From NCBI GenBank assembly GCA_041660605.1, contig JBAZWB010000001.1, forward strand, positions 201,295 through 265,294: 64,000 nucleotides of DNA. The letters run 5' to 3'. The position numbers were made by a program, and so were the translations under genes. The notes beneath the pieces were generated by a model that worked only from the letters and a program-made list of their open reading frames with translations, was not told where the DNA came from and made no database searches. The DNA comes from Patescibacteria group bacterium. GTDB taxonomy: Bacteria; Patescibacteriota; Patescibacteriia; UBA10025; JAHIVO01. Each line of letters begins with the position of its first letter. Within the stretch, counting starts at the first letter, position 1. Shown in pieces: positions 1 to 16,967 of the stretch.

Positions 1-1292
1 TCAAAGAAGATGATATTTTCCTGGCCGGCCTGACAATCAAGAAAGACAGGAGTGTCGGCTATATCGATCGTTTCCGCCACCGGCTGATGTTCCCGATCTG
101 GGATATCCACGGCAATGTCATTGGCTTCGGCGGCCGCTGGCTGGGCGCGGAAAACGACAAAATGGCCAAATACATAAATACTCCGCAAACCGATATTTAT
201 AATAAAAGCCAGGTCCTTTACGGCATTGATAAAGCCAGGCAGGAAATAAAAAAGCAGAAATTGGCCGTCATAGTTGAGGGATATATGGATTGCCTGGCTT
301 CACATCAGGCTGGGGTAATAAACGTGGTCGCTTCTTCCGGCACAGCCCTGACGCTGGAACAGGTGAAATTGCTGAAGCGTTATACTACCAATCTGGCTTT
401 TGCCTTTGACCAGGATCTGGCCGGCGACAGCGCCGCCAAGCGCGGCATTGAGATCGCCTGGCAGGAGGAAATGAACACAAAAATAATTCAGCTGCCGCAG
501 GGCAAGGATCCCGATGAATTGCTGAAAATTGAACCAGCCGCCTGGCCCCGGGCGATTGTTCAGGCCCAATCCGTTATGGAATATTATTTTCAGAAGACTT
601 TTTCCAAGCTGGATCTGAAAAGCGTGGACAATAAAAAAGAAACTGCCCGGATATTACTGCCGGTAATCGCCAAGCTGTCCGATACTATAGAGCAGTCGCA
701 TTATGTCCAAAAATTGGCGGGCCTGCTGAACGTTGAGGAAAGCGTCATCAGGGATAAGCTGAAAAGAATGCAGCTGCAGAAGTCCGGTAAAGCCGACCAG
801 CAGGCAAGCGAACCCGCATACCAGTCTAAAGACCGCTTCATCGCTTTGTCGGAAAATATCATCGGTACGGTGCTGAAAGATAATGAAAAATTTGATGTCA
901 TCGCTGAGCAGCTGCTGCCAGAGCATGTGCCGCTGGAAAAACTAAGCAGGCTTTACAAATTGATGCTAATTTATTATACTAAAAATCAAGCTTTCAACTA
1001 CAAAGAATTTATATCCTCAATACCACAGGCGGACAAGGAACTGGCTACTTATGCGGAGATCTTATCATTAAAGGCCGAACAGGATAACGGTGAGGCCAGT
1101 GAAGATTTTGTTATCCAGGAGATCCGTTCCGGCGTCCACCAAGTGGCGAGAAACCACCTCCAAAAGTCCCTCAAGGGCATAGAGGAGGCTCTGCGTCAGG
1201 CTGAGAAAAGCAATAATAAGCAAAAAGCCGAGCAACTGAACCGCGATTTTTCCGATAAAATCAGCGAGCTCAAACAGCTTGATAATGAGTAA
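1..1292 (+). CDS. dnaG: DNA primase DnaG, C-terminal portion (5' end lies upstream of the window)
   Basis: Frame 3 is open from the window edge. It contains a TOPRIM-like segment '[26 protein letters not shown]' and '[16 protein letters not shown]', and lies directly upstream of rpoD in the classic dnaG-rpoD arrangement. Confidence 0.8.
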
Positions 1293-1306
1293 TATTTTTA
1301 TATAGA

Positions 1307-2518
1307 ATGATGCACAAAAAAATAAAAAAGAAAATAAAGAAGCGAAAAACAACGGCAAAAAGAGACCCCGCTAAAAAAACGCCAAGAAAAAAGAAGAACA
1401 CCGGCAGAAAAACAGAAGTTTCGCCTGTTATCAAACCCATTGATCAGGAAAAAATAAAACGCCTCATTACCAAGGGCCATTCCCGTGGATTTTTAACGGA
1501 AACTGAAATTTTATATAATTTCCCGGATTTAGAGGAATATGTCCCGGAGTTTGAGGCTTTTCTGGACAGACTGGAGTCAGTCGGCGTACAGGTTATCGAG
1601 GGTGCAGGTCATTTTCTGCAAACCGAGCCGGTAAAAGAGGTGAAACCCACCAGGAAGACCGTTGATAAGCGCCGTCTGGATTTGTCCGATATTTCCAATG
1701 ATTCCATACAGATGTATCTGCGTGAAATCGGTAAAGTTCCGCTGTTATCAGGCGATGAAGAACTGCAGCTGGCTAAAAGGAAGGAAAAAGGCGATGTGGA
1801 AGCTCAGCAGAAGCTGGTGGAAGCAAACTTACGCCTGGTCGTTTCCATTGCCAAGAAATTTACCGGCCGTTCGCTGTCTTTATTAGATTTGATCCAGGAG
1901 GGAAATATCGGGTTGTTCCGGGCTGTGGAAAAATTTGATTATCGTAAGGGTTATAAATTTTCCACTTACGCCACCTGGTGGATCCGCCAGGCCATCACCC
2001 GCGCGCTGGCCGACCAGTCCAGGACCATCAGGATTCCGGTGCATATGGTGGAGACGATCAATAAATTCCAGCAGGTAGAGCGGCAATTGATACAGGATCT
2101 GGGACGCGAACCGATGCCCGAGGAAATTGCCGCGGAAATGGACGAACCGGTAGAAAAGATTTATCATATAATGAAAATATCTCAGGATACGGTTTCCCTG
2201 GAGACTTCCGTCGGCGACAGCGATGACGAGGATTCCGTGCTGAGCGATTTCATAGAAGACGTAAAAACCGTAACGCCTGACCGGGTAGCGGCCATGCAGT
2301 TGCTGAAAGATCATGTCCGTGATATTATCAGGCAATTGTCGCCGCGAGAGCAGAAAATACTGGAAATGCGCTTCGGGCTGACTGACGGCGTTTCCCATAC
2401 GCTGGAGGAAGTCGGACAGGAATTCGGCGTGACCCGCGAACGCATCCGCCAGATTGAGGCCAAGGCTCTGGAAAAGATAGAAGACCATCAGGGCATGAGG
2501 AAATTGAAGGACTACTAA
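1307..2518 (+). CDS. rpoD: RNA polymerase primary sigma factor (sigma-70/RpoD)
   Basis: Region 2 '[40 protein letters not shown]', region 1.2 '[16 protein letters not shown]' and a region 4 HTH '[20 protein letters not shown]'. Confidence 0.9.
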
Positions 2519-2524
2519 TACATT

Positions 2525-2556
2525 CGGGAAACCCTTTTTGAGAAAAAGTGTTTCCC
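2525..2556 (+). terminator. Long near-perfect hairpin just after the rpoD stop (cgggaaac-cctttttgagaaaaagt-gtttcccg), with no clear U-tract
   Basis: Inverted repeat read directly from the sequence 7 nt after the rpoD stop. Confidence 0.35.
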
Positions 2557-2733
2557 GGCACCTTTCGTAAAAAAGTCAGAGTGTTCGCGAACTTCAGGAC
2601 CTGGCCGAAGGCCACCCAAAGTTCGCTCACAGATTTGAAAAGTAGATTATACTGCTCGCCTTGGGACCCCTGCTAGAGGCAGGCAAGCGTGAGCTCACGA
2701 TCAATAGGGTTTTAATTAATTATCTACAACATT

Positions 2734-3159
2734 ATGACAAGTCCGGAATATAATCAGGGTCCCGGAGAGCCAAGGGATGAAAGATCTGAGGCGGTTCGGG
2801 CGTCGAATCTCATAAAACGACTGGAAAGATCAAAGATGTTTCCTGCCAATTATTATCGTGATTCTTATCATAGGAAAGATAATTTATCCGTAGCCCTTCA
2901 AAAGTCGACTGAAATATTGCTTAGGGCGCTTGAAGACGAAGACTGGGATTTTATAGATATGCACATAACAGGTGCGCTGGCGCGCGGGTTCGATGATCAA
3001 GGGAAAATGAGCTGGATCCAAAAAAGAGAGTACAGGCAAGTAGTACTGGAACCAATGGTTGCCTATGTTGAAGCCGCGGTAGAGGATGGAACGCTTGAGC
3101 AAGAAAAAGGCGAGGCAATAAAACAAAGCATTAATAGCATTTTTAATAGAGTGAATTAA
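2734..3159 (+). CDS. Hypothetical protein (141 aa)
   Basis: Intact ORF; no recognisable motif. Confidence 0.4.
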   Translation: MTSPEYNQGPGEPRDERSEAVRASNLIKRLERSKMFPANYYRDSYHRKDNLSVALQKSTEILLRALEDEDWDFIDMHITGALARGFDDQGKMSWIQKREYRQVVLEPMVAYVEAAVEDGTLEQEKGEAIKQSINSIFNRVN

Positions 3160-3201
3160 TTATTGCTGGAAGCTTATTGGTCAGCAGTAGATTGATTGGA
3201 A

Positions 3202-3242
3202 AAATAAGTAATTTAACAATTCAATACGCATCAGCCCGCCCG
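3202..3242. repeat. 41-bp direct repeat copy A (aaataagtaatttaacaattcaatacgcatcagcccgcccg)
   Basis: Identical over 40 of 41 nt to copy B at 5499..5539. A 15-nt core (cgcatcagcccgcc) recurs inverted near 6044..6059. Confidence 0.7.
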
Positions 3243-3322
3243 CAACGACTTCGTCGTGCGAAGTCGGGCGAATTGCCAGGTGACCTGTTTCTCTCATAAT
3301 CTAATCCATAACTAAGATATTT

Positions 3323-4426
3323 ATGGAATCACAATTTGGAACAAATACTACGACTTTTTACATTATCCTACCAATTCTAGTCATTGCCGCGGTGGCCATT
3401 GTGTGGTTCGTTTTAAAACTGAAAATGACACCATGGCAAAGAGTAGCGATCACGGTAGGGAGCCTCTTTGCTTTTCTTGGATTCGCAGTGGTTGTACTGG
3501 GTGTGTATTATCAGGTTAATGAGCCGTTTGCCAGCTCGTTTAAATTTTACGCCTTTACGGCATTTGCTCCGGATCAGCGCGATCCCTTTACCGAGCACAG
3601 CGAAACTCAGTCCGTGCTGATGATGCGCACGGTCGGATTTAGTGATGGGGAAGTACGGACGCAATATCATCCGAATCCATACGCTCCTACGATTACCTAT
3701 TTGTTTGTGCCGGGTAAATTTATCACAGCAAATCTTCAAGATAACGTATTAACCTATTTTATCAATAAAGAAGAAGCGGTAGAGAACACTTCACTCTGGT
3801 GGGCGTTGACCAAAGACATGCAGACGATGACATCCGATGCGGCCAATCAGGATCTAGCAACCACTCAGTATCTCGATCTCGGGCATGATTTTTCAAGCCA
3901 AGTGCCGACCGGATGGAAACTGGAAGGCTCGGAGTCAGATGCCATAAACACTGTAAAATTCGGATCACCGGCTGAACGATATAACTTCATTCCCAACACA
4001 GAAAGTATGGATTCAAATGATATGTATACCGGTCCCTTTATTAGCACCTCCTCATTTACCATTGACAGCAGATTGTCGGCTCGTGATGTAGCCAATCTGA
4101 TTCAGGATAGTTCGTCTGCAGACAAGATAGACAATGGCACTGACGAGTGTATATTCTCTGCCGATGTTAGCGTTACCGGTATCGGATATTATGCGTATCT
4201 ATCTGACAATACAGATCTTACGCAATGCGCAGACCAGGGAACTGAAATCGGCAAAAGCATGACACTGGTCCTCAAGAACGAAGGGGATGATCGAGCGGTA
4301 ACGGTGGCGCTTACAGCTAAAAATGATTCAGAGTTTGACGCAGCTTATTATAGTCTTCGTGAGTTTGTAAATTTGATGAATTTGGATAATACTTTATTTC
4401 AATTAAGTCAATTTGGTGCGTCCTAA
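3323..4426 (+). CDS. Hypothetical membrane-anchored/secreted protein (367 aa, two N-terminal TM helices)
   Basis: Hydrophobic N-terminal stretches 'FYIILPILVIAAVAIVWFVL' and 'GSLFAFLGFAVVVLGVYY'. The gene is AT-rich and lies inside the repeat-flanked cassette. Confidence 0.45.
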   Translation: MESQFGTNTTTFYIILPILVIAAVAIVWFVLKLKMTPWQRVAITVGSLFAFLGFAVVVLGVYYQVNEPFASSFKFYAFTAFAPDQRDPFTEHSETQSVLMMRTVGFSDGEVRTQYHPNPYAPTITYLFVPGKFITANLQDNVLTYFINKEEAVENTSLWWALTKDMQTMTSDAANQDLATTQYLDLGHDFSSQVPTGWKLEGSESDAINTVKFGSPAERYNFIPNTESMDSNDMYTGPFISTSSFTIDSRLSARDVANLIQDSSSADKIDNGTDECIFSADVSVTGIGYYAYLSDNTDLTQCADQGTEIGKSMTLVLKNEGDDRAVTVALTAKNDSEFDAAYYSLREFVNLMNLDNTLFQLSQFGAS

Positions 4427-4587
4427 TTTAAGGTGCAGAGAATATATTCTCAAGAAAAAAAGCTATAATAATGGGGTTTTATAAAAGTGAAAATATGTTT
4501 CCCATCAGCATATATCAATTAGACGCGAACGTTCAGATGAGTTATTATCAATATTACAATCAGTATAGTTAAACATAAAATCGTACA

Positions 4588-5253
4588 TTGACTAATAATA
4601 CTCTTATGAAAATAAAATACCTTTTAATCCTAGTAGCCGTGGTAATTGTTTCTGCCGCATTATATGTTTTTGTAATTCTGCCCAATAACGAGGATGGCGC
4701 TACCGATGATAGTCAAGCAAATGGCAATAGTAATTCATCTTTATCAATGACAACTTATCAAAATGATGAGTATCGTTTTACTTTAAGCTATCCATCTGGC
4801 TGGCGGCACAACTCAGTTGATACCAGTGATGCGGCCAGCGGTCCGTATTTTCCGTTTGTATCAATGGCCTTGGAAGAATTTGGATCTGATGATGTTAAAC
4901 AGTCAAAAATTCCTTTCACGGAAAATGATCAACGAATTCATTTTGGTATTGAAGTATATGAGATACCAGAAGAATATTCATCCGAAGGCCTAAAAAGTGA
5001 GTTGGGGTATACTAATACTAATACAAGAGCTAATATATATAAGGGCATGTTTGGTAATTATAGAGCTTTGGTAATGGTGATAGACGATACCAACCATGAA
5101 ATAGAATCAGCTCGCATGTTTAGCCAAAGCTATTTGATACAAAAAAATAGCCTGTGGTATAAAGTTAGTGTTACTGCTCGTCGAGAATCAGTGATAAATG
5201 AAAACAGTACTCTAATTAAGCAAATAGAAAATTCATTTAGGATACTAGAATGA
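4588..5253 (+). CDS. Hypothetical secreted protein with an N-terminal signal anchor (221 aa)
   Basis: N-terminal 'LLILVAVVIVSAALYVFVIL' followed by an AT-rich coding region. Confidence 0.45.
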   Translation: MTNNTLMKIKYLLILVAVVIVSAALYVFVILPNNEDGATDDSQANGNSNSSLSMTTYQNDEYRFTLSYPSGWRHNSVDTSDAASGPYFPFVSMALEEFGSDDVKQSKIPFTENDQRIHFGIEVYEIPEEYSSEGLKSELGYTNTNTRANIYKGMFGNYRALVMVIDDTNHEIESARMFSQSYLIQKNSLWYKVSVTARRESVINENSTLIKQIENSFRILE

Positions 5254-5296
5254 ATAGTATATAGGGTGCGGTATTGACGCGCGTCGTGTTGAATTA

Positions 5297-5485
5297 ATGG
5301 GCGACAATGATTTATCTATCGGTACTTTTTTCATTGATCCACAGGGTAATTATTATAATTTCAACATCGAAATTTTTCCACCCACTTTAGCTGGTGAAAC
5401 AATTGGCACTCATTCGCAGGCGTATCTTGATTCTGTCCGTGATACCTATGATAGTATTATTGAGAGTTTCAAGTTTATAAATTGA
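5297..5485 (+). CDS. Small hypothetical protein (62 aa)
   Basis: ORF only. Confidence 0.25.
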   Translation: MGDNDLSIGTFFIDPQGNYYNFNIEIFPPTLAGETIGTHSQAYLDSVRDTYDSIIESFKFIN

Positions 5486-5498
5486 TACTCTTTAAATA

Positions 5499-5539
5499 AA
5501 ATAAGCAATTTAACAATTCAATACGCATCAGCCCGCCCG
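5499..5539. repeat. 41-bp direct repeat copy B
   Basis: Matches 3202..3242. It lies about 95 nt upstream of tRNA-Asn. Confidence 0.7.
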
Positions 5540-5634
5540 ATACGCTTCGCTAAAGCAACGCGGGGCAAGCAATGGCCCCGCTAGTCAGCGGGGTAAATGC
5601 CGCAACCAAAATATTTTAAATTAAAATACTCTCC

Positions 5635-5706
5635 TCCGCGATAGCTCAATGGTAGAGCAACCGGCTGTTAACCGGTAGGCTGTCGGTTCGAATCCGACTC
5701 GCGGAG
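5635..5706 (+). tRNA. tRNA-Asn (anticodon GTT)
   Basis: Hand-folded cloverleaf: acceptor TCCGCGA/TCGCGGA, D arm GCTC-AATGGTA-GAGC, anticodon arm ACCGG-CTGTTAA-CCGGT, T arm GTCGG-TTCGAAT-CCGAC and discriminator G. No CCA is encoded. The 5' end resembles E. coli tRNA-Asn (UCCUCUG...). Confidence 0.8.
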
Positions 5707-5802
5707 GAGAGTATTTTTTGTTTTAAATGGGCTGCCTGCCCCGCCGAATGGCGGGGTTAACCCCGTATCACAGTTCACTTCGTTCACTGTTCACGGGGCA
5801 AG

Positions 5803-5820
5803 CCGGTAGGCTGTCGGTTC
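5803..5820 (+). repeat. 18-nt duplicate of the tRNA-Asn 3' half (ccggtaggctgtcggttc; original at 5672..5689)
   Basis: Exact 18-nt direct repeat read from the sequence, about 115 nt downstream of the tRNA copy. Confidence 0.7.
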
Positions 5821-6211
5821 TCCCGCCATAAAATTATTTAATTAATAATGAAGGCGGGATCCGCCTCCCTTCGGGTCTGAGCCCCTCAGGGTCGAAGACT
5901 GGCGGAGAATCTTGAGATCAAAAATATAATCAAATGACGAAATCCCGCCGCAAGGCGGGGCGACTCGCCCCGATAGAAATCGGAGATTTCGTACGGGGCT
6001 CGCGGAGTTAGGTGCCTGCCCGCTTTACATTGCAAAAGCAAGGCAGGCGGGCTGATGCGGGGCATGGAGACAATGGAACCTAGCTAGAAGTAATAAACCA
6101 CTGCCTGTCGTGTGGTAATTTTGTAATTTCTAATAGGATTGATTTTTAGCATAAATAATGGGATAATGTCAGCACTGGTTAAGAATCCTATTTTTATTTT
6201 TTATTTATAAT

Positions 6212-6964
6212 ATGTCCCAATACTACAACCCCCAGCGAAAACGCAATCTCTACGACCCAAAAAGTCCGGCTGTGTTCCGGCTTAGCCGTTCGCAAATTGA
6301 TTTATTTTTGAATTGTCAGCGCTGTTTCTATCTTGACCGGCGGCTTGGGGTTGGCCGGCCGCCTGGCTATCCCTTTACGCTGAATTCAGCGGTTGATGAA
6401 CTTTTGAAGCGTGAGTTTGATATTCATCGTGCAAATGGCACGAAACACCCGTTGCAGAAAAAATACGGCATAGACGCCGTTCCGCTGGCGCATGAAAAAA
6501 TGGACGAATGGCGCGACGCCTTGCGGCATGGCATTGCTTTTCATCACGACCGCACAAATTTTTTAATTACCGGCGGCATTGATGATGTCTGGGTCAGGCC
6601 AAACGGCGAATTAATCATCGTTGATTACAAGGCCACATCAAAAAAAGAAGAAGTGAATCTTGATGCTGACTGGCAGATCGGGTACAAGCGGCAGATGGAA
6701 GTCTATCAATGGCTCTTCCGGCAAAACAGGTTTAAGGTTTCCAAAACAGGATACTTCGTCTACTGCAATGGCAACAGCGATGCCAAAGCTTTTGACGGGA
6801 AACTGGAATTTGACGTAAAAGTAATCCCATATGAGGGTGATGATTCATGGGTAGAGCAGGCAATTATTGACGCTCACGCTTGCCTGAATGGCAATAAAAT
6901 TCCCAGGGCTGGCCAGGATTGCGATTATTGCAGTTATATCGCGGCAATAAACAGTAAAAGTTGA
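6212..6964 (+). CDS. PD-(D/E)XK nuclease of the Cas4/RecB-like family with a 4-Cys cluster
   Basis: N-terminal 'SRSQIDLFLNCQRCFYL' (Cas4/AddB-type S.S...C..C), motif 'IIVDYKATS' (hhDYK), 'KRQMEVYQWLF' (Q..Y) and a C-terminal 'CDYCSY'. Confidence 0.6.
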   Translation: MSQYYNPQRKRNLYDPKSPAVFRLSRSQIDLFLNCQRCFYLDRRLGVGRPPGYPFTLNSAVDELLKREFDIHRANGTKHPLQKKYGIDAVPLAHEKMDEWRDALRHGIAFHHDRTNFLITGGIDDVWVRPNGELIIVDYKATSKKEEVNLDADWQIGYKRQMEVYQWLFRQNRFKVSKTGYFVYCNGNSDAKAFDGKLEFDVKVIPYEGDDSWVEQAIIDAHACLNGNKIPRAGQDCDYCSYIAAINSKS

Positions 6965-8349
6965 TGAGACAGGCAGAAGCTTTGGAAATACTAAAAATGG
7001 GGCATAATGTGTTTTTAACCGGCCCGGCAGGCAGCGGCAAGACTTTTTTGTTGAATAAATATATTGGTTATTTAAAGAAAAATAAAGTTGAAATGGCGAT
7101 TACCGCTTCGACAGGGCTGGCGGCTACCCATTTAAACGGCCGGACCATCCATTCCTGGTGCGGCATGGGAATCAGCCAGAGCCTGGATGACGCGCAAATT
7201 AATCATTTGAAAAAAAAGAAACATTTAAATTCAAGCATCAGGCAGGCCAAGGTTTTGATAATAGACGAGATCTCCATGCTTAACGCCAAGCGCCTGGATC
7301 TGGTTAATGCTATTTGCCAGGCTTTCCGGCAGGATGCCAGGCCGTTTGGCGGGATTCAAGTAATTTTTTGCGGAGATTTTTTTCAGCTCCCACCGGTAAC
7401 CAGGAACGAAGATGAAGATGGACGTTTTGTCATTGAGTCGGAGATATGGGGCAATATGGATATAAAGATTTGCTATCTTGAGGAGCAGCACCGGCAAGCA
7501 GACAGGCGGTTTCTGAAAGTATTGAATGATATCAGGTCTAACCAAGTCACGCCCGGTACTGTAAATATTTTGAAAACAAGATTTAATAAGCCGATAGAAA
7601 ATAAAATAAGGCCGACCAAATTATATACGCACAACCATAGCGTTGACGCCGAGAATTTTTCTGAATTAGACAAACTAGAGGGGGCAGAGGTGCCTTATGA
7701 AATGCGCTCTGAGGGCGTACAGCACCTGGTCAAAAGCCTCAAGGACAGCTACTGCCTGGCTCCCGAGACCCTGAAGCTGAAAATTAACGCGGTGGTCATG
7801 TTTGTTAAGAATAATTTTACCAAGGGGTATATCAACGGCACTTTGGGCAGGGTAACGGGATTTGACGGAGAAAGCGGCTTTCCCGTCGTAGAAACGATTT
7901 CCGGCGATAAAATCATCGCCTCTCCCGAAAAGTGGGGCATAGAAGACAATGGCAGCGTTATCGCCTCAGTTATCCAGGTGCCGCTCAGGCTGGCCTGGGC
8001 TATCACGGTCCATAAAAGCCAGGGGATGAGCCTGGATTGCGCGGAAATGGATTTAAGCAAAACATTTGAATACGGCATGGGTTACGTTGCCTTATCCAGA
8101 GTAAAAGCATTGTCAGGCATAAAATTGTCAGGCCTAAACGATTTGGCATTAAAAGTAAATCAAAAAATCGTTGATCTGGATAAAGATTTTTTCAGGATGT
8201 CGCAGAAGCTATTGAAAGGATTAAAGACATTAAGCAAGAAAGAAAAGAAGGATAGGCAGAAGAAATTTATACAAAATAACAGGATTACTGACGACGTGCT
8301 GTATAATTTCAGAACGGAAAGCGCAACAGTCGATGATATTCCATTTTAA
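6961..8349 (+). CDS. Pif1-family SF1B DNA helicase
   Basis: Walker A 'GPAGSGKTF', 'ITASTGLAATHL', 'TIHSWCG', Walker B 'LIIDEISML', the Pif1 signature 'DFFQLPPV' and 'VHKSQGMSLD'. The start overlaps the nuclease stop by 4 nt. Confidence 0.8.
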   Translation: MMRQAEALEILKMGHNVFLTGPAGSGKTFLLNKYIGYLKKNKVEMAITASTGLAATHLNGRTIHSWCGMGISQSLDDAQINHLKKKKHLNSSIRQAKVLIIDEISMLNAKRLDLVNAICQAFRQDARPFGGIQVIFCGDFFQLPPVTRNEDEDGRFVIESEIWGNMDIKICYLEEQHRQADRRFLKVLNDIRSNQVTPGTVNILKTRFNKPIENKIRPTKLYTHNHSVDAENFSELDKLEGAEVPYEMRSEGVQHLVKSLKDSYCLAPETLKLKINAVVMFVKNNFTKGYINGTLGRVTGFDGESGFPVVETISGDKIIASPEKWGIEDNGSVIASVIQVPLRLAWAITVHKSQGMSLDCAEMDLSKTFEYGMGYVALSRVKALSGIKLSGLNDLALKVNQKIVDLDKDFFRMSQKLLKGLKTLSKKEKKDRQKKFIQNNRITDDVLYNFRTESATVDDIPF

Positions 8350-8424
8350 TAATTTTATAAAACGGCATATAATTATTATTCAGAATACAGCCTGGCCGTA
8401 TAATTTAAATAAAGACACCCTCAC

Positions 8425-9897
8425 ATGACCAATGATACCGTAGTCCTTCGCTTTTCCGACGTCACCTTCGCCTACGAGCACGGCAAGAAATTGCTCGACG
8501 AAGCGAATTTTTCCGTCCGCGCCGGCAGCCGCATCACCCTGATGGGCCAGAATGGGGCGGGCAAGAGCTCAATTTTTAAGCTTATTATCGGTGAGCTGGA
8601 GCCGACCGACGGCCGTTTGTCGCGCACCCCGCCGGAGGCCAGCGTCGCTATCGCCCGCCAGGTAATGCCGAAGGAAGCGCTTGAGCTGACCGTGCGGGCT
8701 TACTTTGCCAGCGCTTTTCCCGCAGTGCAGTATAACCTGGATAAGCTGATCAAGGGAGTGTTTGATATCGTCCATTTGGCGCTACCGCTTGACAGGACAA
8801 TCCGTCAGCTTTCCGGCGGTCAGCAGGCGCGGCTGCTCCTGGCGCACGCCCTGATCCAGAATCCGGATATCCTCCTGCTCGACGAACCGACCAACAACCT
8901 CGACCAGTATGGCATTGACCATCTGACTGAGTTCCTCGTCTTGTATGAAAAAACATGCCTGGTCATTTCCCACGACGCCGATTTCCTGAACGCCTTTTCT
9001 GACGGCGTACTCTATCTGGATGCGCGCACCCAGAAGGTTGAGCAATATACCGGCAACTATACTGACGTTGTCGAGGAAATCACCCGGCGGATTGAGCGGG
9101 AGAATTACCAAAATGCCCGGATGCAGCGGCAGATCAAGGAAAAGCGTGCGCAAGCCGAAGTATTTGCCCATAAAGGCGGGAAGCTGCGCGGCGTAGCCAA
9201 GCGGATGCGCGAGGCGGCGGAAGAGGCGGAAGAGAGCATCGTCAGCGTCCGCCAGGAAGACAGAACGATACGGGATTTTTCCATTCCCTGCCAGGAATTC
9301 AGCCCCCACTTCGGCGGAACCATCGTGCAGCTGCAGGCGGCGACGGTTGTTCGCGACCACCAGCCAGTGGAGAAAAAATTAGACGTCACGATCCGCAAGG
9401 GCAATCACGTCGTCATTGCCGGACCGAACGGCATCGGCAAGAGCACGTTGCTGGCAAAAATCGCCGGCGGGTCTTCGGATCACGCCAAGGTTGCGCCGGA
9501 GGCTGCCATCGGGTACTATCAGCAGGATTTCGGAAATCTTGACGGCGACCAGATCGCCTTCGACGCCTTGCGGGCGGTCATGACGGCTGATGACGAGCAG
9601 TTGCTCCGGTCGACTGCCGCGGGGTTCCTGCTTGACGGCGGGCTGCTGGCCCGGCCGATCCGGGCGCTGTCCGAAGGGCAGAAAGGCCTCCTGTCGTTCT
9701 GCCGGTTTGTATTGCAAAAGCCCGGCTTGCTCATCCTTGACGAGCCGACCAATCACATAAATTTCCGGCACCTGCCGGTCCTGGCCCGGGCGCTGGACGG
9801 GTACCGCGGCGCGCTGATCATGGTTTCTCACATCCCTGAATTTGTCAGTCAGATCAGGATTGATACGGTAGTGGATCTGGAACAGGCGTCGGTTTAG
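8425..9897 (+). CDS. ABC-F family ATPase (tandem NBDs with an arginine-rich linker; translation-factor type)
   Basis: Two Walker A motifs ('GQNGAGKSS', 'GPNGIGKST'), two signature motifs ('LSGGQQARL', 'LSEGQKGLL'), linker 'RRIERENYQNARMQRQIKEKRAQAE' and no TM domain. Confidence 0.8.
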   Translation: MTNDTVVLRFSDVTFAYEHGKKLLDEANFSVRAGSRITLMGQNGAGKSSIFKLIIGELEPTDGRLSRTPPEASVAIARQVMPKEALELTVRAYFASAFPAVQYNLDKLIKGVFDIVHLALPLDRTIRQLSGGQQARLLLAHALIQNPDILLLDEPTNNLDQYGIDHLTEFLVLYEKTCLVISHDADFLNAFSDGVLYLDARTQKVEQYTGNYTDVVEEITRRIERENYQNARMQRQIKEKRAQAEVFAHKGGKLRGVAKRMREAAEEAEESIVSVRQEDRTIRDFSIPCQEFSPHFGGTIVQLQAATVVRDHQPVEKKLDVTIRKGNHVVIAGPNGIGKSTLLAKIAGGSSDHAKVAPEAAIGYYQQDFGNLDGDQIAFDALRAVMTADDEQLLRSTAAGFLLDGGLLARPIRALSEGQKGLLSFCRFVLQKPGLLILDEPTNHINFRHLPVLARALDGYRGALIMVSHIPEFVSQIRIDTVVDLEQASV

Positions 9898-10093
9898 CAG
9901 AGGATGAATTTTTTCTGATAAAATTGGCCGATATTTGACTATTTTCAGGAAATCAACTATAATACCCAACATCATGAAATACTCATTTTTTGTTTTACGC
10001 GATAATTTAAAACAGCACCAACCGGCGTGATTGTCTTATAATTTTTTCACATTAGCCTCCCGCCGACTAAGCGGGATTTTTTAGATAAATAAT

Positions 10094-11854
10094 ATGAAAG
10101 CGAATACCAGGGAAACCATAAATATCTATTGGCAAAGCGTCTGGAAATACAAGACGAGCCTTTTGTTTTCACTGGTGGCGATTATCAGCGCCTCGATTCT
10201 GAATGTCATTACGCCTCTATATTATAAAAAATTCATTGACAGCCTGGCGGGCGGAACCGGACAGGACTCAATTGTTAAAACCCTGATTTCCATCCTGATT
10301 ATTATCGCCATCGTGCGCCTGGCACAGTGGGTCTGCTGGCGCATCGCCACTTTTACGGCCAATTATTTTGAGTCAAAAGCCATGACTGACCTGACTGACA
10401 GTTGCTTCGCATTCCTTCATAAGCATTCATTCGGATTTTTCAATGATAATTTTGTCGGTTCCCTGGTCAAGAAAGTCAAATGGTTCGGCCGGTCGTTTGA
10501 AGTCATCGCCGACCGCCTGTTATGGAACCTCCTGCCGCTGGTGGTGAACATTGCCGTGATAGCCATCATTCTTTTCAAGCGCAGCAGCGGGCTGGGCTTC
10601 GGAGTGGTAGCCTGGGTGATAGTCTTTTTAATCATCAATAGTTTATTCGTCAGATATAAGCTGAAATACGATCTCAAGCGGAGTTTAGCCGAAACTAAAA
10701 CAACGGGCTTCCTGTCCGATTCAGTCGCCAATCACAGCACGGTTAAGCTTTTCGGCGGCTATGGCCGTGAAATCAGCGGTTTTGCCGGCCTTAACGAAAA
10801 GCTCCGCCGTTTAAGGAAATTAACCTGGGATTTAGGATCATTGTTCGAGGCGGTGCAGGGATTATTAATGACTTTTTTGGAAGTAGCGATCTTCTATTTT
10901 GCCATCGGCTTGTGGAAAAAAGGCCTGCTGACCATCGGGGATTTTGTTTTGATCCAGGTTTATCTGATAAACATTTTTGAGCGCGTCTGGGATTTCGGCA
11001 AGTTTATCAGGCAGATATATGAGGGTTTAGCGGACGCAGATGAAATGACGGAGATTCTCCAGACGCCGCTGGAGGTGCAGGATGCCCATGGGGCGAAAGA
11101 ATTAACAGTGACCAGCGGGCAGATAAATTTTAGCGCTGTAGATTTCTGCTACCGGCAGACGCGTGAAATTTTCAACGGATTCAACCTGGATATAAAATCG
11201 CATGAGCGCGTGGCCATCGTCGGTTCTTCGGGCGCCGGGAAAACCACACTGGTAAAGATGCTCCTGCGCCTGCATGACATTTCCTCCGGTGCGATCCTGA
11301 TCGACGGCCAGGATGTGGCCAGGGTAACCCAGGAAAGCCTGCACCGCAATATCGGCCTGGTACCCCAGGATCCGATCCTTTTTCACCGCAGCCTGATGGA
11401 AAATATCCGTTATGGCCGTCCGGAAGCGACAGACGACGAGGTTATCGTGGCAGCCAGAGCGGCACATTGCCATGAATTTATTTCTTCAATTCCCGAAGGC
11501 TATAATACATTTGTCGGCGAACGGGGCGTTAAATTATCCAGCGGCGAACGCCAGCGGGTGGCCATTGCCCGGGCGATTCTCTATAACGCGCCGATTCTTA
11601 TTCTGGATGAAGCGACCTCCAGCCTTGACTCTGAATCGGAACGGCTGATCCAGGACGCGCTGGAGGCATTAATGACAGGGAAAACGGTTATCGCCATTGC
11701 CCACCGCCTCTCAACTATTAAAAAAATGGACCGCATCATCGTAATTGAGAAAGGGAAAATTTCAGAAGAGGGATCTCATGCGTCGCTTTTGCGGAACCAG
11801 GCAGGAGCTTACCGGCACCTCTGGAAATTGCAGGCCGGTGGGTTTATCCAGTAA
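10094..11854 (+). CDS. ABC transporter, fused permease/ATPase (type I exporter)
   Basis: N-terminal 6-TM domain; NBD with 'GSSGAGKTT', 'LSSGERQRVAIARA' and 'ILILDEATS'. Confidence 0.85.
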   Translation: MKANTRETINIYWQSVWKYKTSLLFSLVAIISASILNVITPLYYKKFIDSLAGGTGQDSIVKTLISILIIIAIVRLAQWVCWRIATFTANYFESKAMTDLTDSCFAFLHKHSFGFFNDNFVGSLVKKVKWFGRSFEVIADRLLWNLLPLVVNIAVIAIILFKRSSGLGFGVVAWVIVFLIINSLFVRYKLKYDLKRSLAETKTTGFLSDSVANHSTVKLFGGYGREISGFAGLNEKLRRLRKLTWDLGSLFEAVQGLLMTFLEVAIFYFAIGLWKKGLLTIGDFVLIQVYLINIFERVWDFGKFIRQIYEGLADADEMTEILQTPLEVQDAHGAKELTVTSGQINFSAVDFCYRQTREIFNGFNLDIKSHERVAIVGSSGAGKTTLVKMLLRLHDISSGAILIDGQDVARVTQESLHRNIGLVPQDPILFHRSLMENIRYGRPEATDDEVIVAARAAHCHEFISSIPEGYNTFVGERGVKLSSGERQRVAIARAILYNAPILILDEATSSLDSESERLIQDALEALMTGKTVIAIAHRLSTIKKMDRIIVIEKGKISEEGSHASLLRNQAGAYRHLWKLQAGGFIQ

Positions 11855-11975
11855 TCATTGGCAGCTGAAATAGAGCCAGAGCTGCTATAGTTAAGTCCAC
11901 CTGAAAGAGGGTTGACTCCGTTTGCGTATCTGCTAGAATGTATATCATACATTTCTTACAAGTAGGATAAATATT

Positions 11976-12215
11976 ATGACACCACAAACAAATCACGCAT
12001 TTTATGGGACTACTACCCTGGGAGAGAAAGGACAGGTAGTCATCCCCGCCGGAGCCCGGGAAGCCTTGAAGCTGGGAAAAGGCGAGAAGCTTCTGGTTTT
12101 TTCCATGGGGCATGGCATGCTGGCGCTGGCTAAGCTTGAACACCTGGCTAAATTTGAAAAGCATATGACAGAAAAGCTGGAGGCCATCCGTCAGGCAGTC
12201 AAATCAGTAAAATAA
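11976..12215 (+). CDS. AbrB/SpoVT-like swapped-hairpin DNA-binding protein (79 aa)
   Basis: 'GTTTLGEKGQVVIPAGAREALKLGKGEKLLVF' resembles the AbrB/MazE fold signature. It lies between ABC exporter genes. Confidence 0.4.
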   Translation: MTPQTNHAFYGTTTLGEKGQVVIPAGAREALKLGKGEKLLVFSMGHGMLALAKLEHLAKFEKHMTEKLEAIRQAVKSVK

Positions 12216-12219
12216 ACCT

Positions 12220-13995
12220 ATGAAGCATTTGTTTAAATATTTTAAACCTTATCTTTGGCAATTTTTAATATTGCTGGTCATGGTCTATCTGATGGTGCTG
12301 GCGACACTGGCACTGCCGGACTATATGGCCATCATCATCAATAAGGGGATTGTGGCTGAGGATATGTCCGTGGTCTGGCACAACGGGTGGATCATGCTTT
12401 TATTCGCGCTCGGCGCTGCCGCGGCCAGCGTGGTGATCGGCTGGCTAGCCTCGCGCATCGCGGCCGGTTTTTCCCGGGATATCCGGGAGGCGACTTTCAA
12501 GAAGGTAGAAAGTTTTTCTTTGCATGAATTCAATACCTTTTCCACGGCCTCGCTGATTACCCGCTCAACCAACGACGTCCAGCAGATACAGATGGTATTG
12601 ACAATCCTTTTACGCATGGCCTTGATGGCGCCGATCATGGGCGTCTGGGCGATCATCAGGGCTTACCAGAATGCACCCTCCATGACCTGGTTAATGGGCT
12701 TGGCGGTCGGCGTTTTAATTGCTATAATTGTCATTTTATTTACTATTGCCATCCCGCGGTTCAAGAAACTGCAAAAGCTGGTTGACCGCCTGAATCTGGT
12801 CAGCCGTGAAATCCTGACCGGCTTGCGCGTGATCCGCGCTTTTAACCGCGAACCGGTTGAAGAAAAAAAGTTTGACAGCGCCAACGTCGAATTGACCAGA
12901 ATCAATTTATTCGTAAACCGCATTCTGGTGATCATGCAACCGGTGATGATATTAATCATGAATCTGACGACTCTGGCCGTCATCTGGTACGGCGCCCATC
13001 TTGTTGACCTGGGAAATTTGCAGATCGGGCAGATGCTGGCCTTCATGCAGTACGCCATGCAGGCAATTTTTGCTTTTCTTCTGATTACCATGGTTTTCAT
13101 CATGGTGCCGCGCGCCGCCGTTTCCGCTGACCGGATCGGCGAAGTGCTGGCCACCGAGGCGACCATCAAAGACCCTGAAAAGCCGGCTGACGTTTCCTCG
13201 GCACACGGCGGCCAGGTGGAATTCAAACACGTCAGCTACAGTTATGCCGGGGCGGATGAACCTGTTTTGAATGACATCTCTTTTACCGCCTGGCCCGGCC
13301 AGACCACCGCCATTGTCGGCAGTACCGGCAGCGGCAAGTCTACGCTGATAAATTTAATCCCCAGGTTTTATGACGTCAGCGCCGGCGAGGTTAAAATCGA
13401 TAATATTGATATCCGGAAAATGAGGATGGAAGACGTGAATGCCAAGATCGGCTACGTGCCGCAAAAAGGCGTTTTATTTTCCGGCACCATTGAGAGTAAT
13501 CTTAAATATGGCGCGCCCCAGGCTTCAAATGATGAAGTAAAACAAGCAGCGGAAATCGCCCAGGCTAAAGATTTCATCGAAAAATTAAATGGAAAATACC
13601 AGGCCGGAATTTCGCAGGGCGGCGCCAACGTGTCTGGCGGGCAAAAACAGCGCCTGGCCATTGCCCGGGCGATCATGCGCCAGCCCGAAATTTACATCTT
13701 TGACGACAGTTTTTCCTCTTTGGATTTCACCACGGACGCGAAATTACGGCAGGCTCTGTCCGCGGCTATAAAAAATAAAACAGTTATCATCGTGGCCCAG
13801 CGCATCAGCACCATCATGAACGCGGAAAAAATCATCGTGCTGGATGAAGGCCGGATAGTCGGGCAGGGAACGCATAATGAACTGATTAAGTCATGCGCGG
13901 TTTACCGGGAAATTGCCTCTTCTCAATTGTCCGAAGAAGAATTAAAAAGTCATCCCGGACGCACGGGGCGGCTGGTAAAGGAGGCGACCACATGA
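12220..13995 (+). CDS. ABC transporter, fused permease/ATPase (exporter; probable heterodimer partner of the next gene)
   Basis: TM domain plus NBD with 'GSTGSGKST', 'VSGGQKQRLAIARA' and 'IYIFDDSFS'. Confidence 0.85.
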   Translation: MKHLFKYFKPYLWQFLILLVMVYLMVLATLALPDYMAIIINKGIVAEDMSVVWHNGWIMLLFALGAAAASVVIGWLASRIAAGFSRDIREATFKKVESFSLHEFNTFSTASLITRSTNDVQQIQMVLTILLRMALMAPIMGVWAIIRAYQNAPSMTWLMGLAVGVLIAIIVILFTIAIPRFKKLQKLVDRLNLVSREILTGLRVIRAFNREPVEEKKFDSANVELTRINLFVNRILVIMQPVMILIMNLTTLAVIWYGAHLVDLGNLQIGQMLAFMQYAMQAIFAFLLITMVFIMVPRAAVSADRIGEVLATEATIKDPEKPADVSSAHGGQVEFKHVSYSYAGADEPVLNDISFTAWPGQTTAIVGSTGSGKSTLINLIPRFYDVSAGEVKIDNIDIRKMRMEDVNAKIGYVPQKGVLFSGTIESNLKYGAPQASNDEVKQAAEIAQAKDFIEKLNGKYQAGISQGGANVSGGQKQRLAIARAIMRQPEIYIFDDSFSSLDFTTDAKLRQALSAAIKNKTVIIVAQRISTIMNAEKIIVLDEGRIVGQGTHNELIKSCAVYREIASSQLSEEELKSHPGRTGRLVKEATT

Positions 13996-16034
13996 ATAAA
14001 TCCACCAAAAAAACTCCACCGCAGCAGAATTTAGACTCTTCGGCTAAACCGCCGCCAATCGGTCCGATGGGCCGTGGCAGTCCTATGGGCATGATGATGC
14101 CTTTCCAGAAAGCCAAGAATTTCAAAAAGACGATGAAACAGCTCGGCGGTTACCTCAAACCTTTTTGGCTGTCATTAACCGTGGTTGTTTTCTTTACCAT
14201 CGCCAGTACGGCCTTTGCCATTGCCAGCCCGAAAATCCTCGGCCAGATGACCAACCAGGTAGTCGATGATTTTGTCCACCGCACTGCCTATGACCAGCTG
14301 GCGGGGAATCTTCCGCCAGGCACGCCATTACCGGCCGGCACCACTGGCGCTGACCTCTTAAACAAATTGCCGCCGTCTGTCACGGAAAAAATCCCCTCGG
14401 CCGCCCGCAGCAGCATTGCCAATCTTGACCTGTCCAAGCGCCCGGATTTTGACTATCAAAAATTAATGAGTATCGCTATCGTGCTGCTGGCACTGTACGG
14501 TTTTAGCGCCATCTTCAGCTATATCCAGAGCTGGATCATGACAAATGTCACGCAGAAAATCACTTACCAGTTTCGCCAGGAAATTTCCACCAAGATCGGG
14601 CGCCTGCCGCTGAAATATTTCGACCAGACGACCCATGGCGAAGTGCTGAGCCGGATAACAAATGACGTGGATACAGTCAGCCAGACCCTGAACCAATCCC
14701 TGACCCAGATTATCACCTCGGTCACCATGATTATCGGCATTTTAGCCATGATGCTGTCCATCAGTTGGCAAATGACGCTGGTCGCCATTGTCACCCTGCC
14801 CTTGAGTTTCGGCCTGATCGGCCTGGTGGTGAAACGCTCCCAGCGATATTTCAAATTGCAGCAGGACACGCTCGGCCACCTCAATGGCCATATCGAGGAA
14901 ATGTACGGCGGGCATATTGTCATGAAAGTGTTTAACGGCCAAGCCCGCTCCCTGGCCACCTTTTCCAAACATAACGCGGAATTATACGGCAGCGCCTGGC
15001 GTTCGCAATTCCTCTCCGGCCTGCTGTTCCCGATCCTGAATTTTGTGGGAAATATCGGCTATGTCGGCGTGACGGTGCTGGGCGGGTACCTGGCCATCCA
15101 GGGCCGCATTAATATTGGCGACATCCAGGCTTTTATCCAGTACGTCAGCCAGTTTAACCAGCCGATAGTCCAGACCGCCAACGTGGCGAATATCCTGCAG
15201 TCCACCGCCGCTGCCGCAGAAAGGGTTTTTGAGTTTTTGGCAGAACCAGAGGAATCTCCTGATCCAGAGTCTGCCAAAGCGCTGGTCAGCGTACACGGCA
15301 AAGTTGAATTTGACCATGTGCATTTCGGCTATAGTCCGGATAAAACCATTATCCATGACTTTACCGCCAAAATCGAGCCTGGCCAACGCGTGGCCATAGT
15401 CGGACCGACCGGCGCCGGCAAGACAACTATGGTTAATTTGCTAATGCGGTTTTATGACATCAACAGCGGCGTGATAAAAGTTGACGGCGTTGACATACAC
15501 TCTATGAAACGCTCTGATGTCCGGAAACTTTTTGGCATGGTTTTGCAGGATACCTGGCTTTTCAACGGCACTATCCGGGAAAATCTGGCTTATGGCAAGC
15601 CCGAGGCCACTGACGAGGAAGTTTTTGAAGCAGCCAAGGCCGCTCATGTTGATCATTTCATTCACTCATTGCCGCACGGCTACGATATGGTACTTGATGA
15701 GGAAACCAATAATATTTCCCAGGGTGAAAAGCAATTGCTGACTATTGCCCGCGCCATGCTGATCAAGACGCCGATGCTTATCCTTGACGAGGCCACCAGT
15801 TCTGTTGATACCCGTACGGAAGTATTGATCCAGAAAGCTATGGAGCGCCTGATGAAAGGCAAAACCAGCTTTGTCATTGCTCACCGGCTTTCCACCATCA
15901 GGAATGCCGATTTGATCCTCGTCATGCGCGACGGAAACATCGTTGAGCAGGGGAAACACCATGAGCTGCTGGAAAAAAACGGTTTTTACGCTTCGCTCTA
16001 CAACAGCCAGTTTACGGCACCGGTATCTGCCTAA
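13992..16034 (+). CDS. ABC transporter, fused permease/ATPase (exporter)
   Basis: ATG at 13992 overlaps the upstream stop. TM domain plus NBD with 'GPTGAGKTT', 'ISQGEKQLLTIARA' and 'ILDEATSSVD'. Confidence 0.85.
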   Translation: MNKSTKKTPPQQNLDSSAKPPPIGPMGRGSPMGMMMPFQKAKNFKKTMKQLGGYLKPFWLSLTVVVFFTIASTAFAIASPKILGQMTNQVVDDFVHRTAYDQLAGNLPPGTPLPAGTTGADLLNKLPPSVTEKIPSAARSSIANLDLSKRPDFDYQKLMSIAIVLLALYGFSAIFSYIQSWIMTNVTQKITYQFRQEISTKIGRLPLKYFDQTTHGEVLSRITNDVDTVSQTLNQSLTQIITSVTMIIGILAMMLSISWQMTLVAIVTLPLSFGLIGLVVKRSQRYFKLQQDTLGHLNGHIEEMYGGHIVMKVFNGQARSLATFSKHNAELYGSAWRSQFLSGLLFPILNFVGNIGYVGVTVLGGYLAIQGRINIGDIQAFIQYVSQFNQPIVQTANVANILQSTAAAAERVFEFLAEPEESPDPESAKALVSVHGKVEFDHVHFGYSPDKTIIHDFTAKIEPGQRVAIVGPTGAGKTTMVNLLMRFYDINSGVIKVDGVDIHSMKRSDVRKLFGMVLQDTWLFNGTIRENLAYGKPEATDEEVFEAAKAAHVDHFIHSLPHGYDMVLDEETNNISQGEKQLLTIARAMLIKTPMLILDEATSSVDTRTEVLIQKAMERLMKGKTSFVIAHRLSTIRNADLILVMRDGNIVEQGKHHELLEKNGFYASLYNSQFTAPVSA

Positions 16035-16076
16035 GATAAAAAATTTAGGCGATAATTTACTTATTAGCGAATAAAA

Positions 16077-16967
16077 ATGAACTGGATTTTCGTCGCTTTA
16101 CTAGAACCGATTTTTCATGCTTTTGCCAATATTTTGGACAGCAACCTGGCCAATCGCCTGTTTAAAAACGCCTGGCTGCTGTCGCTGATTATAACCGTTG
16201 CCGTAACGATTTTTACGCCTTTTGTCTGGCTGCTGGATCCGCCAAAGTTTTTCCCGTTGCACCTGCTACCGTATTTCATCATCGTGGGAGCTATCGAGCT
16301 GTTGTACGTGTATCCTTATTTTAAAGCCTTGCAGGGCGACGATACTTCAGTAGCTACTTCATTATTCTCCTTGGGCAAGATATTGGTACCGATACTCGCG
16401 TTTTTTCTGATAGGCGAGACGTTGCGTCCCGTGCAGTACGCCGGTTTTTTACTGATAATCGCGGCCTCAGTCGCACTGACCTTCAATCCAAAGGCCCGGC
16501 TTTGGTTTAACCGGACATTTTTTTACATCTTATTGTCTTCGGCGCTACTGGCAGTGGAAGTCGTTATTTTTAAATATATTTTTACGCAAGTAAGCTGGGG
16601 TACGGGTTATGTCTGGACGGTGGTAATTGCCAGCGCCATAGCATTAGCGGCTTTACTGCCACAACTTAGGCGTACGGATACAAGGCAGGAACTGGTGGCG
16701 CTGAAAAAAAATTACTGGCTGATTTTGCTGGTGGGAGGCGCGAGTTTTTTAGGCAATATCGGCTTCAGTTACGCCATTTTCGCGGTGCCGGCCACGGTCT
16801 CGCGGAGCATAGATTCTTTCCAGCCGTTTTTTGTCCTCTTATATGCGATACTTTTCAAGCGCTATTTCCCTCTGGCCTTCAAAGAATCAACCAATAGGCG
16901 GAGCTTGATAAAAAAGATTGTCCTTTTCGCTGTAATGGTGATTGGGGTGATTTTAACGGTAAGATAA
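16077..16967 (+). CDS. Polytopic membrane protein, possibly a DMT/EamA-like permease (296 aa, about 10 TM)
   Basis: Hydrophobicity pattern only; size and two-halves organisation fit the DMT superfamily. Confidence 0.35.
   Translation: MNWIFVALLEPIFHAFANILDSNLANRLFKNAWLLSLIITVAVTIFTPFVWLLDPPKFFPLHLLPYFIIVGAIELLYVYPYFKALQGDDTSVATSLFSLGKILVPILAFFLIGETLRPVQYAGFLLIIAASVALTFNPKARLWFNRTFFYILLSSALLAVEVVIFKYIFTQVSWGTGYVWTVVIASAIALAALLPQLRRTDTRQELVALKKNYWLILLVGGASFLGNIGFSYAIFAVPATVSRSIDSFQPFFVLLYAILFKRYFPLAFKESTNRRSLIKKIVLFAVMVIGVILTVR

Follow-up and report, generated by a model that had tools for sequence, protein, structure and literature searches.

A Cas4-like nuclease gene and a Pif1 helicase gene adjoining downstream of tRNA-Asn in a Patescibacteria genome: probably resident genes with a lineage-specific adjacency

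The DNA considered here is a stretch of 64,000 nucleotides (nt) from a Patescibacteria group bacterium, which belongs to the Candidate Phyla Radiation (CPR). It comes from assembly GCA_041660605.1 (contig JBAZWB010000001.1, positions 201,295 to 265,294 of the forward strand), and the whole of it is called the window below. Downstream of a tRNA-Asn gene it carries a gene for a Cas4-like nuclease and, directly after that, one for a Pif1 helicase. These are probably resident, conserved genes that have come to lie side by side in one lineage, and not the contents of a tRNA island. Both proteins are 100% identical to proteins on a 904,720-bp contig of a Patescibacteria (CPR) metagenome-assembled genome (MAG), the helicase match being P0121. 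The features that matter to the argument are these (aa, amino acids).

5634..5707, + strand: tRNA-Asn, anticodon GTT (ARAGORN; Rfam tRNA model, 76.1 bits)
5708..6211, + strand: non-coding spacer rich in G+C hairpins (RNA folding, promoter scan)
5803..5820, + strand: exact 18-nt copy of tRNA-Asn positions 5672-5689, 131 nt from its source (direct-repeat search)
6212..6964, + strand: stand-alone Cas4-like nuclease of the RecB-family PD-(D/E)XK type, 250 aa (Pfam, alignment, AlphaFold2, Foldseek)
6964..8349, + strand: Pif1-family helicase of superfamily 1B (SF1B), 461 aa, from ATG 6964 (Pfam PIF1 and Pif1_2B; homologues)

The first gene encodes a nuclease of the PD-(D/E)XK fold. PF12705 (PDDEXK_1) covers residues 23-243 with 59.3 bits against a cut-off of 22 (E 7.5e-16), in agreement with an earlier, sequence-only reading of this DNA. 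That reading had also invoked Cas4. The Cas4 family models do match, but under their curated thresholds (TIGR00372, 31 bits vs 65; PF01930, 14.4 bits vs 22.7), and PADLOC-DB 2.0 likewise returns weak Cas4 models of ~30 bits. One source (JGI) still labels the protein as Cas4. The 64-kb window contains no CRISPR repeat array, and the Pfam families listed for the neighbours in 73-74 related loci include no cas family.

Conservation was judged from an alignment of 54 nuclease sequences reaching down to 34% identity. C35, K66, R73, W100, D124, K140, Y165, W213, P231, and C237 are invariant, and C38, D125, D138, Q161, and C240 are kept in at least 90% of the sequences. The predicted catalytic residues are D124/D125, D138, and K140, together with Q161 and Y165 of the QxxxY motif. 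Therefore, the D...DxK and QxxxY motifs and the four cysteines are features of the family. A fifth cysteine of the window's protein, C224, is not conserved. The conserved four are laid out two and two, as C35-x2-C38 ... C237-x2-C240 (CxxC...CxxC), and no conserved cysteine is found six residues past C240 in the alignment. Canonical Cas4 has a 1+3 layout, one N-terminal cysteine followed by C-x2-C-x5-C. The Cas4/AddB-type signature claimed earlier thus stands as to the PD-(D/E)XK motifs and the conservation of four cysteines, but not as to the 1+3 pattern of canonical Cas4 and AddB. The predicted metal-binding site that these cysteines form most likely holds an iron-sulphur (Fe-S) cluster. SufB is encoded at 58274-59674 of the window, so Fe-S assembly is available in the host, and four conserved cysteines with a SUF assembly gene are compatible with a [4Fe-4S] or a [2Fe-2S] cluster.

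The AlphaFold2 model of the nuclease has a predicted local distance difference test (pLDDT) score of 95.4. Its top Foldseek matches in the PDB are the AdnAB nuclease domains, RecE, Cas4 (SSO0001 and Pcal_0546), lambda exonuclease, the Argonaute-associated Cas4-family protein ACE1, human Exo5, and AddB. The Foldseek probability is 1.00 for AdnAB, RecE, and the two Cas4 proteins, with modest TM-scores of 0.4-0.5. A single-sequence search against PDB sequences gave noise, and a profile search gave a weak Cas4 match, to SSO0001 (E 0.002). A partial alignment to SSO0001 spans the C-terminal CxxC alone.

The second gene encodes a complete Pif1-family helicase. PF05970 (PIF1) matches with 136.8 bits (cut-off 25.9, E 1.1e-39) and Pif1_2B with 26.6 bits (cut-off 23.9). 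The Walker A motif GPAGSGKT, the DEISM motif, and the Pif1 signature region ...PFGGIQVIFCGDFFQLPPV, which ends in DFFQLPPV, are all in place, and the earlier description of a textbook Pif1 helicase is borne out. The closest solved structures are human PIF1 (E 2.8e-74, residues 3-403) and yeast Pif1 (E 5.7e-73), with Bacteroides Pif1 at E 5e-49. The predicted activity is ATP-dependent unwinding in the 5'-3' direction. Homologues are widespread in CPR genomes at 56-83% identity. PADLOC-DB 2.0 gives generic RecD-like and P-loop matches to several unrelated systems.

One feature of the helicase is its C-terminus (8329-8346), which reads ...VDDIPF and lies past a lysine-rich, basic linker. In bacteria the C-terminal tail of the single-stranded DNA-binding protein (SSB) has the conserved tip DDDIPF, and the end of the window's Pif1 matches it. 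Among the C-termini of 120 CPR Pif1 homologues an exact VDDIPF occurs in 4 and [IL]PF in 29, and many others are GGLF-like. The tail may serve as a partner-docking peptide.

The two genes overlap. The nuclease stop codon TGA (6962-6964) shares 1 nt with the helicase start (TGATG) if this is ATG 6964, the codon taken by the public annotation (P0121), and 4 nt if it is the alternative TTG at 6961, which would give a protein of 462 aa. The overlap of stop and start reported earlier is therefore real, but its length of 4 nt holds for TTG 6961 alone. A sigma-70-like promoter match lies ahead of the nuclease gene at 6139-6167 (promoter scan). Because the stop and start codons overlap behind a single promoter-like site, the two genes are probably co-expressed.

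How general is this arrangement? In the closest relatives, loci L081 and L082, the nuclease is 89% and Pif1 67% identical to the window's proteins, with the same 1-nt overlap. In L083 Pif1 is 83% identical and the nuclease gene upstream of it is reduced to its last ~60 nt. In L096, a distant contig from a viral catalogue, the nuclease is 60% identical and is followed, after a gap of 2 nt, by a Pif1-family helicase just 32% identical to the window's. No nuclease lies beside the Pif1 orthologues of four other CPR contexts (L084, L086, L088, and L090). The adjacency is thus seen in L081/L082, L083 (as a remnant), and L096 alone, and for this reason the pairing is considered rare and lineage-specific, and not defining for either family. 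It is possibly recurrent. The remnant in L083 (134-196; ...DCNYCSYVGTINSKN and a stop codon) stands ahead of Pif1 and is preceded by the end of a different gene, which we take to be the C-terminus of a DUF2779-like protein.

The nuclease itself is widely distributed. A word-indexed search returned at least 8000 homologues, the best 120 of which are 71-89% identical to the window's protein. When one genome per species was scanned, a relative was found in at least 555 species, and the best 80 of these (69-87% identical) carry labels including Microgenomates, Parcubacteria, Gracilibacteria, Peregrinibacteria, Doudnabacteria, and Kerfeldbacteria, among others. An exhaustive profile search yielded 1966 cluster representatives at E <= 0.001. 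A neighbour-joining tree built from reliably labelled sequences clusters Moranbacteria, Paceibacteria, five Microgenomates lineages, and a Peregrini/Gracili/Peri group, and places the window's protein with Kerfeldbacteria. Identity averages 73% within superphyla and 71% from one superphylum to another. The high identity across CPR classes and a tree that mostly follows taxonomy argue that the nuclease has been inherited vertically under strong constraint and is not island cargo. It is a CPR-wide, vertically inherited resident gene whose tree largely tracks CPR taxonomy. Published work is in line with this: stand-alone Cas4 proteins occur commonly in the genomes of CPR and DPANN, are passed on mainly in the vertical line and, in DPANN, adjoin restriction-modification genes (Hudaiberdiev et al., 2017; PMC5704561).

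A side observation concerns one Kerfeldbacteria MAG, GFS_8656, which holds two copies of the nuclease, 87% (L001) and 80% (L004) identical to the window's. The first follows an N6/N4 methylase and an OLD-family protein, the second proteins of 1043 and 568 aa. Either the copies are true paralogues or the bin is mixed.

The explanation that we consider probable is that the nuclease and Pif1 are two resident chromosomal genes. The first would be a CPR-wide stand-alone Cas4-like nuclease, closest to that of Kerfeldbacteria, and the second a CPR-wide Pif1 5'-3' helicase, and their adjacency, with overlapping stop and start codons, would have arisen in this lineage only. What might two such proteins do together? 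In the proposed scheme Pif1 would move 5'-3' on single-stranded DNA, separating the strands at DNA ends or at flaps, and the 5' strand displaced in this way would be degraded by the nuclease. The pair would then act as a loose two-protein Dna2, or as one arm of AddAB or AdnAB. Its substrates would be broken chromosomal ends or linear restriction fragments, and the outcome either 3' tails for recombination or the destruction of such fragments. Across CPR the nuclease gene typically stands at the end of a variable slot occupied by defence genes of the restriction-modification, OLD-family or SMC-like kinds. That the two proteins truly cooperate is a tentative part of the scheme, plausible but somewhat short of an even chance.

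Several observations weigh against this explanation. When the window's Pif1 was compared by tblastn with 80 nuclease loci of other species, with 6 kb of flank on each side, no Pif1 was found within 6 kb of the nuclease in 79 of the 80 related genomes. The sole match was a convergent Pif1 fragment of 60 aa at a contig edge. Nor is the nuclease fused to a helicase in any of ten long homologues that were scanned, where the identifiable extra domains are DUF2779, TIR, NUDIX or HD. To our knowledge, the 2+2 cysteine layout is unlike that of every characterised cluster in Cas4, AddB, Dna2 or Exo5, and at the four-cysteine site sequence alone cannot separate Fe-S from structural zinc. Finally, defence genes are enriched upstream of the nuclease in related loci (see below), so the nuclease could work with those systems and not with Pif1. 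The sequence-only reading had proposed a two-gene version of Dna2-like or Pif1-nuclease fusions. Of this, the likeness at the level of the fold remains (AdnAB, Exo5, and AddB in Foldseek), but a conserved two-gene module, seen in 1 of 80 loci and there as a fragment, does not.

Predicted fusions of the nuclease domain are found in distant homologues. They join it to TIR and GYF (P0286, a TIR-nuclease fusion), DUF2779 (P0305), NUDIX (P0246), and HD (P0279).

The alternative that survives best starts from the upstream neighbours. Here the nuclease would be a shared downstream component of variable CPR defence operons, for example degrading or processing DNA cut by restriction-modification or OLD-type systems. 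Pif1 would be a recent or incidental neighbour, and the window would have lost its defence partner and kept the spacer. Neighbours of the nuclease vary widely among related loci, and defence genes are strongly enriched upstream but not downstream. The first upstream gene (73 scanned) encodes an OLD-family AAA_15 protein in 7 loci (with OLD TOPRIM in 5), an SMC-like AAA_23 ATPase in 7 and a YgjP-like protein in 4; others are UvrD, restriction endonucleases, reverse transcriptases, GmrSD, a Schlafen helicase, RhuM, and a C5-methylase. The second (67 scanned) includes ResIII in 11, type I HsdR in 5-6 and N6/N4 methylases in 3, in addition to GmrSD, HNH, and Vsr. The first downstream gene (74 scanned) is mostly a housekeeping gene, with GT2 glycosyltransferases in 7 loci and scattered RhuM, Fic, Bro-N, and AbiV. 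In 61 of 73 loci the upstream gene is co-oriented with the nuclease, and in 30 of 73 no more than 20 nt separate its end from the nuclease start. Where nuclease and Pif1 are paired, restriction-modification genes lie directly upstream in L081 (type I, with an SMC-like ATPase) and L096 (type III). Type IIG restriction-modification genes also precede Pif1 at two loci. The TIR-nuclease fusion fits as well, and the same idea has been published for DPANN stand-alone Cas4 (PMC5704561).

Nevertheless, there are reasons to regard this alternative as unlikely, its example role included. The upstream partners come from many unrelated systems, and an insertion hotspot beside a conserved gene fits equally well. 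More than half of the loci are without a recognisable upstream defence gene, and in the window nothing but the tRNA and the hairpin-rich spacer occupies this slot. Identities of 70-89% across CPR classes are unlike those of arms-race genes, and the weak Cas4 matches in PADLOC point to no known system. Co-orientation is weak evidence because CPR genomes are strongly strand-biased. The upstream pattern could mean either that the nuclease serves these systems or that a conserved gene flanks an insertion hotspot.

In a bolder form of the hotspot idea, a defence-island hotspot found throughout the phylum would be anchored at the nuclease gene. Incoming cassettes would at times recombine at the 5' end of that gene, and the nuclease, with Pif1 where the two are linked, would be a common DNA-end-processing partner of diverse restriction systems. 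This is rather improbable, and its recombination-site part rests on one locus, L014. A peptide scan of 96 loci found this type of N-terminal duplication in L014 alone, and the window has no second copy of the nuclease 5' end.

The locus L014 is nonetheless worth describing. The first 48-80 nt of its nuclease gene, with some upstream sequence, occur in four direct copies, and the opening 34 nt of the downstream protease gene are present three times (325-398, 4380-4500, 5976-6049, 6747-6867, and 8353-8386). The repeats bound three cassettes, one with GmrSD and DUF2779, one with two unknown genes and one with AbiEi/AbiEii, and two of the nuclease 5'-end copies meet stop codons after ~20 codons. 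These repeats could be scars of repeated insertion at the 5' end of the nuclease gene, or an assembly artefact. In L037 (5508-5546) DNA scans show that the gene upstream of the nuclease shares its first ~13 codons (MSQYYNPN...) with the nuclease itself. L037 and L083 suggest rearrangements with breakpoints within the nuclease gene. As a general pattern N-terminal duplication was set aside as anecdote (L014, and the shorter copy in L037). Direct repeats flanking the nuclease in L030, L063, L027, and L013 were considered as cassette ends and rejected, since they resemble repeated promoter/operator or hairpin motifs.

Could the pair instead mark or end a CPR prophage, either as an attachment region or as phage-borne replication and recombination genes? 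Directly 3' of Pif1, the three relatives that keep the adjacency have a convergent prophage-like block (L081:10204-16123, L083:1679-7100, and L096:8383-11676). It contains genes for a terminase large subunit and a ParB-methylase and a small terminase-like gene. DUF4352 is present as well in L081 and L083, and L083 also has a large serine recombinase. In addition, L096 is catalogued as a viral contig, and Pif1-type helicases are common in phages. In the window, however, no such block follows Pif1, and the genes past it are an ABC-F ATPase, three ABC exporters, and EamA, which are not phage genes. The Pif1 orthologues of L084 and L086 lie among housekeeping genes. Among 50,697 deposited phage genomes none matches the nuclease, which occurs on just 5 viral-catalogue contigs, and a Pif1 scan of the same catalogue gave none. 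A prophage origin is therefore very improbable.

The last alternative is the one that the tRNA had suggested. The tRNA-Asn gene lies 504 nt upstream of the nuclease gene, and its surroundings are indeed repeat-rich, as stated earlier. A perfect 19-nt inverted repeat (5623-5641 / 5699-5717) makes the leader and trailer of the tRNA fully complementary and lengthens the acceptor stem by ~11 bp. The 18-nt duplicate is real: the 18-mer has 2 matches in the window, a number reached in 0 of 100 dinucleotide shuffles. It had been described as a partial duplicate of the 3' half of the tRNA. An exact, non-random duplicate it is, but it copies an internal segment, about tRNA positions 39-56 (3' strand of the anticodon stem to 5' strand of the T-stem). 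The copy at 5803-5820 diverges ahead of the T-loop and acceptor end and is without the tRNA 3' end. The two copies enclose 113 nt of non-coding DNA and no gene, and no further copy is found in the whole 64-kb window at up to 3 mismatches. The copy may be an old, decayed scar; nothing ties it to the nuclease or Pif1 genes.

The spacer that follows the tRNA is strongly structured, the RNA fold of 5708-6080 being far more stable than shuffled controls (z-score -5.45). Searching 5300-6300 against Rfam at E up to 1 matched the tRNA alone; mir-3660, Plastid-ycf2, and DUF3800-XI were rejected as RNA families for the spacer, their matches lying far under thresholds. A blastn search of 5486-6211 against all fetched related loci found no significant similarity, so the spacer is considered lineage-specific. 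Two further repeats were noted in this region. A 42-nt intergenic element (AAATAAG.AATTTAACAATTCAATACGCATCAGCCCGCCCG) occurs twice, 98% identical, at 3201-3242 and 5498-5539, each time past the end of a gene. The other is a perfect 14-nt inverted repeat (CGCATCAGCCCGCC / GGCGGGCTGATGCG, at 5524-5537 and 6046-6059), which encloses the tRNA and most of the spacer.

Other evidence on the tRNA comes from gene content and relatives. There is no integrase, recombinase, phage or other mobile-element gene within 6 kb of the pair. The GC content of the 6-8 kb segment is 0.452-0.465 (about 0.45-0.47 for the pair), typical of the window (~0.46). A tRNA-Asn near the nuclease is found in 0 of 64 relatives scanned, and any tRNA directly upstream in L019 alone. 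The pair could still be cargo or the remnant of a mobile element or defence island integrated at tRNA-Asn, with the 18-nt duplicate as a leftover attachment (att) site, as a genuine repeat of tRNA sequence, a repeat-rich and structured spacer, and nuclease genes that border mobile or defence DNA in relatives might suggest, but a repeat that is internal to the tRNA, single, and placed around non-coding DNA instead of the genes, together with ordinary GC, the missing integrase, relatives without the tRNA, a nuclease phylogeny that tracks taxonomy and no match in deposited phage genomes, leaves this scarcely credible. The adjacency of the pair to tRNA-Asn is incidental, and the proposal that the pair arrived with an integrated element, or is what remains of one, is not supported. 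The opposite had been pictured as a conserved core repair operon without connection to a tRNA island. The genes are indeed conserved residents with no link to such an island, but they do not make up a conserved operon.

The rest of the window can be described briefly. Nearly all of its genes are on the + strand. The gene run from 87 to 16967 has dnaG, rpoD, and three hypothetical proteins upstream of the pair. Two genes farther along stand out. At 24337-27375 a KAP-family P-loop NTPase of 1012 aa lies in the window's lowest-GC stretch (0.31-0.39 over 24-28 kb), and this segment looks like a horizontally acquired, possibly defence-related insert. At 44587-49845 an alpha-2-macroglobulin-like protein of 1752 aa has an intein-like Hint / pretoxin-HINT domain inserted at about residues 1003-1132.

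What do these results mean? The notion of a mobile, split Dna2-like module at a tRNA matters little, as that framing does not hold. Identity of ~70-89% across CPR classes, on the other hand, is striking for a nuclease without a known role. In a large share of CPR genomes the gene sits at the downstream edge of a variable slot of defence genes, and it offers a conserved landmark by which CPR metagenomes can be searched for defence islands. A few lineages appear to have it translationally coupled to a eukaryote-like Pif1, which would give a concrete candidate pair for DNA-end processing in organisms about whose recombination and defence hardly anything is known.

Nuclease-helicase systems of defence islands are one point of comparison. 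Hachiman HamAB, Gabija GajAB, and Nhi also combine a nuclease with a helicase, often in such islands. However, the PADLOC matches to the window's helicase are to the generic P-loop only (HamB E 0.002, Nhi E 6.9e-06), those to the nuclease are weak Cas4 matches, and no one known defence system in PADLOC-DB 2.0 is specifically matched by both proteins. In addition, the window's genes are conserved vertically, not patchily.

The helicase resembles BaPif1 of Bacteroides and Thermus oshimai Pif1 in its compact core of ~430-460 aa, its 1A, 2A, and 2B domains and the Pif1 signature motif. It differs from them in the basic C-terminal linker ending in VDDIPF and in having a nuclease as genomic partner.

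AddAB and AdnAB, the bacterial end-resection machines, are a further comparison. The AdnAB nuclease domains match the nuclease best in structure, with a Foldseek E of 1.7e-05 and a query-normalised TM-score of 0.47, and AddB also matches. These, however, are large heterodimers in which the nucleases are fused to a UvrD-like SF1A motor, whereas here a free nuclease of 250 aa adjoins an SF1B Pif1. Eukaryotic Dna2 acting with Pif1 on flaps and ends, and Exo5, are compared as well, the likeness being that of an Fe-S RecB-like 5' nuclease that works with an SF1B 5'-3' helicase; in the window such a function is predicted. Human and yeast PIF1 (E about 1e-74) are nearer to the window's helicase than the Bacteroides protein is, and Exo5 is among the fold matches of the nuclease. 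The difference is that Dna2 has its nuclease fused to its own helicase, while here the two are separate proteins, neighbours in few lineages.

Stand-alone Cas4 (solo-Cas4) and the Cas4-like nucleases of pfam12705 (PMC5704561) are close known counterparts. The likeness extends to the RecB-family PD-(D/E)XK core, the QxxxY motif, and four cysteines linking the N- and C-terminal helices. It also extends to genomic habit, since these proteins lie away from CRISPR-cas, are common in the small genomes of CPR and DPANN, are inherited mostly vertically, and are sometimes beside restriction-modification genes. The window's nuclease differs in falling under the Cas4 thresholds and in its cysteines, CxxC...CxxC vs C...CxxCx5C. 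Its partner differs too, because the helicase links in that study are of the UvrD and YprA types only and the one here is Pif1. Much of this is already known: both genes are annotated as such in public records, and stand-alone Cas4 in CPR was published in 2017. The additions are modest. They are the 2+2 cysteine variant, the extension of defence adjacency from DPANN to CPR with counts, and an occasional coupling to a eukaryote-like Pif1.

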